Source: a virus | Lineage: Duplodnaviria; Heunggongvirae; Uroviricota; Caudoviricetes | Strand: one strand, 5' to 3' | Length of the DNA stretch: 6,329 bases | Virus record (IMG/VR): IMGVR_UViG_2547132488_000017 | Location: 1-6,329 of that record | Shown here: one piece after another, positions 2,263-2,505 of the stretch | Numbering within the stretch: the stretch's first letter is position 1 | Layout: every line of letters begins with the position of its first letter | Position numbers and translations under genes: made by a program | The notes under the pieces: generated by a model | The model's input: only the letters and a program-made list of their open reading frames with translations | Told to the model about the DNA's origin: nothing | Database searches by the model: none

Positions 2263-2290
2263 TTGAAAAAGTATCTGTCCTCATTAATAT
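2263..2290 (+). promoter_or_regulatory. Candidate sigma70 promoter for the tRNA pair
   Basis: TTGAAA (2263-2268), 16-bp spacer, TAATAT (2285-2290), preceded by an approx 80-bp AT-rich tract (possible UP element) and followed by a GC-rich discriminator-like CCCTGCGG. Lies about 55 nt upstream of the tRNA-Thr 5' end. Confidence 0.4.
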
Positions 2291-2351
2291 TCCCTGCGGT
2301 TCCAAGGGAGATGTAAAGCGCGGTCATTTTTATTTTTCCTGAGGAACCAAT

Positions 2352-2427
2352 GCCGACTTAGCTCAGCAGGTAGAGCAACTGACTTGTAATCAGTAGGTCA
2401 CCAGTTCGATTCCGGTAGTCGGCACCA
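2352..2427 (+). tRNA. tRNA-Thr (anticodon UGU), 76 nt with encoded CCA
   Basis: Cloverleaf folded by hand. Acceptor stem GCCGACT/AGTCGGC (7 bp), D-stem GCTC/GAGC, anticodon stem ACTGA/TCAGT with loop CTTGTAA (U33, anticodon TGT, A37), T-loop TTCGATT, 3' ACCA. One A-C mismatch in the T-stem. Strongly resembles host thrU as recalled. Confidence 0.88.
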
Positions 2428-2430
2428 TAT

Positions 2431-2505
2431 GCGGGTATCGTATAATGGCTATTACCTCAGCCTTCCAAGCTGATGATGCGGGTTCGATTCCCGCTACCCG
2501 CTCCA
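2431..2505 (+). tRNA. tRNA-Gly (anticodon UCC), 75 nt with encoded CCA
   Basis: Acceptor stem GCGGGTA/TACCCGC (7 bp, perfect), anticodon stem TCAGC/GCTGA with loop CTTCCAA (anticodon TCC), T-stem GCGGG/CCCGC, T-loop TTCGATT, discriminator T then CCA. Starts 3 nt after tRNA-Thr. Resembles host glyT as recalled. Confidence 0.88.

Follow-up and report, generated by a model that had tools for sequence, protein, structure and literature searches.

A host-like tRNA-Thr(UGU)/tRNA-Gly(UCC) pair as a putative moron-like cassette of lambdoid prophages

Genomic context of the tRNA pair

The window, i.e., the whole stretch of 6,329 nucleotides analyzed here (positions 1 to 6,329 of IMG/VR record IMGVR_UViG_2547132488_000017), carries exactly two tRNA genes according to ARAGORN, coding for a tRNA-Thr(UGU) and a tRNA-Gly(UCC) separated by the 3-nt spacer TAT; they are preceded by a candidate promoter and a structured leader, and followed by a structured trailer (Table 1). 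Pfam searches identified a DNA methylase upstream of the pair, two holins and an endolysin downstream, and at the beginning of the window a protein assigned to DUF1133, which also matches Phage_antitermQ weakly and is referred to here as Q-like. In the usual layout of lambdoid phages, pR' and tR' are found directly after Q. A pR'/tR'-like module adjoins the Q-like gene, and its terminator (AACCCGC-TTTA-TGCGGGTTTTTTT, at about 643-668), which is absent from the list produced by the consensus terminator scan, directly precedes four-tRNA arrays in other prophages, together with the sequence 3' of it.

The best phage match of the window was phiP27, with 93% identity from position 654 onward. The initial annotation had stated that Stx-type phages carry Ile/Arg tRNAs at the equivalent position, and phiP27 bears this out, the cargo of its slot being ileZ and argO, followed by stx2e; phage SerU-LTIIb likewise has other tRNAs at this place. 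The tRNA pair of the window is located between Q/pR' and the lysis genes on the strand of the late operon, in synteny with phiP27 and with Escherichia coli prophages. On the basis of the ORF assignments, the pR'/tR'-like layout and the phiP27 match, we take the window as part of a lambdoid prophage, namely its late-regulatory and lysis region; the pair, lying between the methylase and the holin/endolysin genes of such a region, is phage-borne, as had been proposed. A search of the Q-like protein against PDB sequences gave no meaningful match.

Table 1. Location and supporting evidence of the features in the window
Feature	Position	Strand	Evidence or description
Q-like gene (DUF1133 protein)	3-557	+	Pfam; weak Phage_antitermQ match
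pR'/tR'-like module adjoining the Q-like gene	553-668	+	TTGATT-17-TTCAAT, weak promoter-like pair, then strong terminator
N6/N4 DNA methylase	1137-2183	+	Pfam
AT-rich region upstream of the promoter	2184-2262	+	19% G+C; extra -35-like words TTTACG, TTAACA
Candidate sigma-70-type promoter	2263-2290	+	-35 TTGAAA 2263-2268, 16-nt spacer, -10 TAATAT 2285-2290; predicted start near 2297
Structured 5' leader hairpin	2298-2348	+	GGUUCC-AA-GGGAGA...UUUUCC-UGA-GGAACC; MFE -20 kcal/mol, z = -3.3
tRNA-Thr(UGU), thrU-like, encoded CCA	2352-2427	+	ARAGORN; Rfam RF00005 72.2 bits, E = 8e-15
tRNA-Gly(UCC), glyT-like, encoded CCA	2431-2505	+	ARAGORN; Rfam RF00005 65.6 bits, E = 5e-13
Structured 3' trailer	2533-2636	+	Closing helix around three hairpins, then AUUUUUC; MFE -42.3 kcal/mol, z = -3.1
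Two holins	3067-3459 and about 3449-3724	+	Pfam
M15 endolysin	3721-4104	+	Pfam

Some further observations concern the surroundings of the pair. In the prophage of E. coli MB06234, a gene for a PemK/MazF-family toxin (L136:42258-42659) is found after Q, ahead of the small ORF and the methylase that come before the tRNA cassette, and the window has no counterpart of it at that place. Between the cassette and the lysis genes, three consecutive intrinsic terminators (2867-2886, 2915-2932 and 3026-3041, + strand) are located just upstream of the first holin start. Small RNAs may end at them, and they may also keep transcription from the tRNA promoter out of the lysis genes. In the whole window, the consensus scan found 18 terminator-like sites versus 6.8 expected. 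An ORF overlapping the triple-terminator region (2624-2986, 120 aa, GTG start) had no Pfam match. Furthermore, a sub-threshold match to STnc100 (RF02076), a family of prophage sRNAs, was found at 2701-2896 (+), with 28.6 bits versus a gathering score of 47 and an E-value of about 1e-4, which spans the full length of the model and whose 3' end is formed by the strong terminator 2867-2886 plus T8. According to a 2026 preprint, STnc100 is related to the PasD sRNAs of lambdoid prophages, which are encoded beside holin/lysozyme genes.

The two tRNA genes are near-copies of host thrU and glyT

The initial annotation described two complete tRNAs with encoded CCA lying 3 nt apart, and both were recovered by ARAGORN and by Rfam, with scores more than twice the RF00005 gathering score of 29 bits. 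As read from the sequence, both anticodon loops have 7 nt with U33 and a purine at position 37 (CUUGUAA in tRNA-Thr and CUUCCAA in tRNA-Gly), the T-arms are GGTTCGATTCC with a T-loop of the GTTCGAT type, and the genes end in ACCA (Thr) and TCCA (Gly).

To our knowledge, thrU and glyT are the sole E. coli genes with UGU (Thr) and UCC (Gly) anticodons. The alleged resemblance to them was borne out by alignment to the K-12 genes, in which the Thr gene matched thrU at 75/76 nt, the sole change being T16 to C in the D-loop, and the Gly gene matched glyT at 73/75 nt, differing only in the acceptor pair C6:G66, which is U6:A66 in the window; the Gly acceptor-stem change (T6/A66 in the DNA) is thus compensatory, as first noted. 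The anticodons, anticodon arms, T-arms and encoded CCA are the same in the window pair and in the K-12 genes. Threonyl-tRNA synthetase (ThrRS) recognizes G1:C72, C2:G71, G35 and U36 as identity elements, and glycyl-tRNA synthetase (GlyRS) recognizes U73, the first three acceptor pairs, C35 and C36; the window tRNAs agree with thrU and glyT at all of these positions.

An A-C mismatch in the Thr T-stem had been taken as a sign of divergence. The mismatch is indeed present, but host thrU has the same one, and it is therefore not specific to the phage. The claim of functional divergence rather than a recent copy accordingly comes down to one D-loop base, one ancestral mismatch and one compensated pair, and is not sustained; moreover, as described below, many copies of the cassette carry genes identical to those of K-12.

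The organization of the pair is distinct from that of the host genes. In the K-12 operon thrU-tyrU-glyT-thrT-tufB, thrU and glyT are parted by tyrU plus a 116-nt spacer, whereas they lie 3 nt apart in the window; likewise, K-12 thrU has another promoter (TTGCAT-17-TAGAAT) and a leader of about 10 nt, in contrast to the hairpin leader of about 55 nt of the window cassette. The possibility that promoter and leader were captured along with thrU was ruled out, the K-12 thrU upstream region being unrelated to 2184-2351.

Sequence conservation points to a promoter dedicated to the cassette

The initial annotation placed a sigma-70 promoter of its own before the pair, with an AT-rich upstream region and a GC-rich discriminator. 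Since the consensus scan found 4 promoter-like sites in the window versus 7.8 ± 2.5 in shuffles, the TTGAAA-16-TAATAT match alone is not above chance. Among the homologues, two upstream classes were distinguished, the two-tRNA class, which includes the window, and the four-tRNA arrays. From the former, 27 distinct diverged loci were aligned, their 110-nt upstream regions being 57% identical on average. In this alignment, the -35 TTG was conserved in 96-100%, the -10 bases T1, A2, A5 and T6 in 100%, and the spacer was 16 nt long in 27/27 loci, while base identity was low in the spacer (0.54) and in the discriminator (0.47). Such a pattern is what a working sigma-70 promoter would be expected to leave, and as a phylogenetic footprint over diverged loci it supports the proposed promoter, whose activity is likely.

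The upstream region is AT-rich as stated, with a G+C content well below that of the window (48%), and its additional -35-like words correspond to TTTACA/TTGAC in most homologues. The GC-rich discriminator is found in this copy (TCCCTGC), but is not conserved among the homologues. Two ORFs that overlap the promoter and leader, at 2184-2342 (+) and 2180-2305 (-), were treated as non-coding because of the 19% G+C and because the indels among homologues are not multiples of three.

An alternative reading would take 2263-2290 as the Q-dependent late promoter pR' itself, with the tRNAs as a constitutive short transcript like the lambda 6S RNA. The layout of the unit lends itself to this, as a promoter, short RNAs and a terminator-like trailer are placed upstream of the lysis genes with the three further terminators mentioned above; however, a pR'-like hexamer pair followed by a strong terminator is already present at 553-668, the usual lambdoid place after the Q-like gene. 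In addition, homology with phiP27 and with Stx2 phages, which carry different Q genes, begins at 654, and therefore the Q-specific module ends there. In other prophages, the same terminator lies directly before a tRNA array with its own, different promoter, and in phage SerU-LTIIb the cassette occurs a second time, after a holin fragment. The identification of 2263-2290 as pR' was rejected on account of the 553-668 module and the start of homology at 654, and we regard this reading as extremely improbable, the interpretation as a promoter dedicated to the tRNA cassette being retained.

Leader and trailer are predicted to form conserved structures

The leader hairpin has its 5' end about at the predicted transcript start and its 3' end 3 nt before tRNA-Thr. 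RNAalifold, unaided, returned the same two basal helices with a GA/(U)GA internal loop between them; 94% of the cells were paired, versus at most 72% with slid partners, and covariation was observed (CG:14/UA:6/UG:5 and GC:11/GU:9/AU:5). The leader was also considered as a decayed upstream tRNA or as a lambda boxB-like site, and both were rejected, as the resemblance is limited to short words (GGTTC; CCCTGAAGAA in some homologues) and the hairpin that would be required is missing.

In the trailer, the closing helix is formed by CAGCACUG (2533-2540) with CAGUGCUG (2622-2629). Across 17 diverged loci, 93% of the trailer cells were paired, versus at most 53% with slid partners, and a compensatory change was present at 9 pairs. 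Within the trailer, the consensus terminator scan reported the inner hairpin 2604-2624 only, and the trailer end (2622-2636) consists of a helix plus a U-run and is not a canonical short hairpin terminator. The trailer is probably the terminator of the cassette, and a stable RNA derived from it is possible. A second, unrelated type of trailer was found in other prophages.

No Rfam family matched the leader or the trailer, with permissive E-values included. An sRNA sponge is known from a host tRNA operon, in the form of its 3' external transcribed spacer; by analogy, the trailer might be set free and act as a stable regulatory RNA, while the leader might set the processing or the stability of the precursor. 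That both are functional RNA elements of prophage tRNA cassettes, as yet undescribed, is a tentative suggestion which we consider rather doubtful; if they are, the cassette does more than supply tRNAs.

The Thr-Gly cassette is widespread, and about half of the copies match the host genes

We searched IMG/VR and bacterial genomes for the cassette with a pattern consisting of the thrU 3' end, 0-20 nt, and the glyT 5' end. This Thr-Gly junction pattern was found in at least 120 IMG/VR stretches, and also in the genomes of E. coli, Shigella flexneri (three copies), Escherichia ruysiae, Citrobacter braakii and Enterobacter hormaechei. Alleles were counted in the 134-135 cassette copies among the matches listed. 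The junction was TAT in 129 of the 135 copies collected, and about half of the copies carried genes identical to those of K-12 (71 Thr and 63 Gly genes), which further argues against the functional divergence mentioned above. The Thr allele of the window was present in 7 of the copies collected, and the Gly pair 6:66 was U:A in 56, C:G in 73, and the intermediate U:G in 4; the exact 154-nt pair of the window was found at three loci among them. Nor is the locus an artefact of assembly, because the prophage context recurs.

The pair is already annotated in the databases. RefSeq annotates tRNA-Thr and tRNA-Gly at the locus in 38 complete E. coli genomes matching most of a 437-nt query, and the pair is annotated in the GenBank phages SerU-LTIIb (KU052038), phi467, JLK-2012, vB_EcoS-683R6, vB_EcoM-606R7 and PhiR47_1. 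The view of the pair as a different tRNA cargo does not hold against these records; judging from them and from the pattern search, the Thr-Gly cassette is an ordinary, known and widespread cargo of E. coli-type lambdoid prophages. A literature search on ileZ/argN/argO, on the tRNAs of LT-II prophages and on thrU/glyT in prophages found nothing specific.

The tRNA pair is 96% identical pairwise, compared with 57% for the 110-nt upstream flank, and this difference points to constraint. Alternatively, the high identity could be kept by gene conversion with host thrU/glyT or by recombination between phages, rather than by selection. In its full form, this alternative considers the cassette as a neutral hitch-hiker, namely host DNA captured in a recombination-prone slot, of no benefit to the phage and kept host-like by gene conversion. 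The large share of copies identical to host genes would be expected under it, and the slot is indeed highly mosaic, being occupied by Ile/Arg, Ile-Arg-Thr-Gly or Ile-Lys-Thr-Gly tRNAs, toxins or IS elements depending on the phage. Nevertheless, tyrU and 116 nt lie between the two genes in the host, in contrast to the fixed TAT junction of the phage cassette, and the conserved promoter, leader and trailer of the cassette are absent from the host operon. Moreover, the cassette persists in the five species and in at least 120 viral contigs while its flanks diverge, and the change in the Gly acceptor stem is compensated, not decaying. We consider the neutral explanation unlikely.

Codon usage is consistent with a role in decoding

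Phage-borne tRNAs decoding A-ending rare codons are a textbook feature, and the initial annotation suggested that the pair may tune ACA and GGA decoding for late genes. Codon usage was compared between 21 late genes of a related prophage with the same cassette (that of E. coli MB06234) and 48 K-12 genes, the related prophage and the 48-gene host set standing in place of the full genome of the window phage and of its own host. ACA amounted to 14.0 per thousand in the prophage versus 4.9 in K-12 (22% vs 10% of Thr; Fisher p = 3e-8), and GGA to 12.5 versus 6.7 per thousand (16% vs 9% of Gly; Fisher p = 3e-5). For ACG, the values were 24.5 versus 13.7 per thousand (39% vs 28% of Thr), and for GGG, 19.0 versus 11.7 (25% vs 15% of Gly). 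The same trend was observed in the six ORFs of the window (26% ACA and 17% GGA).

The suggested tuning fits these data, both codons being enriched in the late genes of the related prophage relative to K-12, and so does the standard explanation that phage tRNAs compensate for codons which the phage uses more than its host. The enrichment may simply reflect the lower G+C of the phage, and is in itself no proof of a benefit. For the lambdoid phage SfI, with a tRNA-Thr(UGU) encoded downstream of Q, an ACA bias and the standard explanation have likewise been reported (PMC3636060).

A different role would be that of spare tRNAs, with the cassette making up for host tRNAs that tRNA-cutting abortive-infection nucleases such as P2 OLD destroy. 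As shown in a 2025 study, this nuclease, triggered by lambda Gam, kills by cutting the host tRNA-ThrU(UGU), its main target, in the anticodon stem, and phage Thr(UGU) tRNAs, including that of the lambdoid phage 21, rescue the cells (PMC12445682). The first tRNA of the window has exactly the UGU anticodon, and in 5/134 of the collected cassette copies, from loci other than the window, the 3' strand of the anticodon stem is UCACC or UCAUC and not UCAGU, with the CNG (CAG) motif changed and the stem shortened. However, resistance to OLD arises only when the CNG motif is altered and the anticodon stem is also shortened, an extra host tRNA-ThrU gives little or no protection, and rescue is abolished when a rescuing tRNA is given the ThrU anticodon arm (PMC12445682). 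In the window, the tRNA-Thr anticodon arm (ACUGA-CUUGUAA-UCAGU) is that of host thrU, with intact CUG/CAG motifs and neither of the two resistance features; the window allele is therefore predicted to be OLD-sensitive, and counter-defence was rated low for it. We found no report of a nuclease targeting tRNA-Gly(UCC). Taken together, a counter-defence role appears quite improbable, and the supply of decoders remains the preferred interpretation for the window pair. As a separate observation, the five variant copies (among loci L005-L124) carry both features reported for OLD resistance.

Discussion

In this work, we propose that the tRNA pair of the window belongs to a self-contained, moron-like cassette of the lambdoid prophage late region, supplying decoders for ACA/ACG and GGA/GGG, an interpretation that we hold with considerable, though not full, confidence. 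The cassette would consist, in order, of a sigma-70 promoter, a structured leader, tRNA-Thr(UGU), the 3-nt spacer, tRNA-Gly(UCC) and, lastly, a structured trailer with a U-run at its end. It would be transcribed from its own promoter, probably in the lysogen too, and during lytic growth Q-modified polymerase arriving from pR', some 1.7 kb upstream, would transcribe it as well. RNase P and 3' trimming would release the tRNAs from the precursor, and they would be charged by the host ThrRS and GlyRS, as expected because they are near-copies of host thrU and glyT. More decoders would then be available for ACA/ACG and GGA/GGG, which are rare codons in the host and occur about twice as often in the genes of the phage. 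The data establish the two genes and their near-identity to host genes, the prophage context, the codon enrichment and the conservation of promoter, leader and trailer, whereas promoter activity, processing, charging and any benefit to phage translation are inferences. Morons are autonomous transcription units inserted in the late operon of a phage, and a trait typical of them, presence or absence among related phages, was observed, with phiP27 having ileZ/argO and stx2e in its place, SerU-LTIIb carrying it twice, and 52F4 showing extra cargo after the cassette.

The useful outcome of this analysis is a correction, since the pair turned out to be a very common, host-like cassette rather than a diverged or unusual cargo. 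What appears to be new, from the comparative sequence evidence, is the conserved leader hairpin and the structured trailer of roughly 100 nt. Two by-products are possibly of interest to specialists, the structured leader and trailer themselves, and the thrU bodies that repeatedly have exchanged anticodons or altered anticodon stems in sister prophages, a point that connects with the recent finding that P2 OLD kills by cutting tRNA-ThrU. Regarding the exchanged anticodons, copy 1 of the cassette in SerU-LTIIb, whose features were taken from the GenBank annotation, has as its first tRNA (L003:1122-1197) a thrU body with a UCU anticodon, annotated as Arg, which also carries two other changes, located in the D and anticodon stems, and a thrU body with a UUU anticodon, called Lys, is found in 2 copies (L074:3480-3555). 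They resemble natural shifts of the anticodon within a Thr scaffold.

Among known systems, the tRNA clusters of T4-type phages also include Thr(UGU) and Gly(UCC) and are about 84% identical over the tRNAs, but these phages are virulent, with larger clusters containing other tRNAs, and their flanks are unrelated to the window. The lambdoid phages SfI, Sf6, ST64T and 21 have a tRNA-Thr(UGU) after Q as in the window, although its partner is Asn and not Gly; in addition, the tRNA-Thr of phage 21 has a diverged, OLD-resistant anticodon arm (PMC12445682), whereas that of the window is host-like. The slot of the window pair, from Q/pR' to the lysis genes, is occupied on the same strand by ileZ-argN-argO or ileZ-argO upstream of stx in the Stx phages (phiP27 and 933W type), and also by four-tRNA arrays composed of Ile2(CAU), Arg(UCU) or Lys(UUU), Thr(UGU) and Gly(UCC). 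As in the window pair, the tRNAs of both groups decode A-ending, host-rare codons and have their own promoter, the tRNA species being different or additional. Unlike the window, the four-tRNA arrays (L010, L012, L127-L131, L134) and ileZ of phiP27 (L002:3041-3080) have a promoter of the type TTGCAg-17-TATTAT, in which a GC-rich discriminator, CCTGCGCCC, is conserved; the leader is almost absent, the first tRNA beginning about 9 nt after the -10. Further counterparts are the temperate Escherichia phages SerU-LTIIb, phi467, JLK-2012, vB_EcoS-683R6 and PhiR47_1, together with the RefSeq E. coli prophages, which have the same pair, the TAT junction and the late position. Leader and trailer are common to the window, 52F4, MB06234 and SerU-LTIIb copy 1, the latter being distinguished by the UCU anticodon of its first tRNA, and the annotated Thr-Gly pairs present only allelic differences to the window, namely in the Thr D-loop base and the Gly 6:66 pair.
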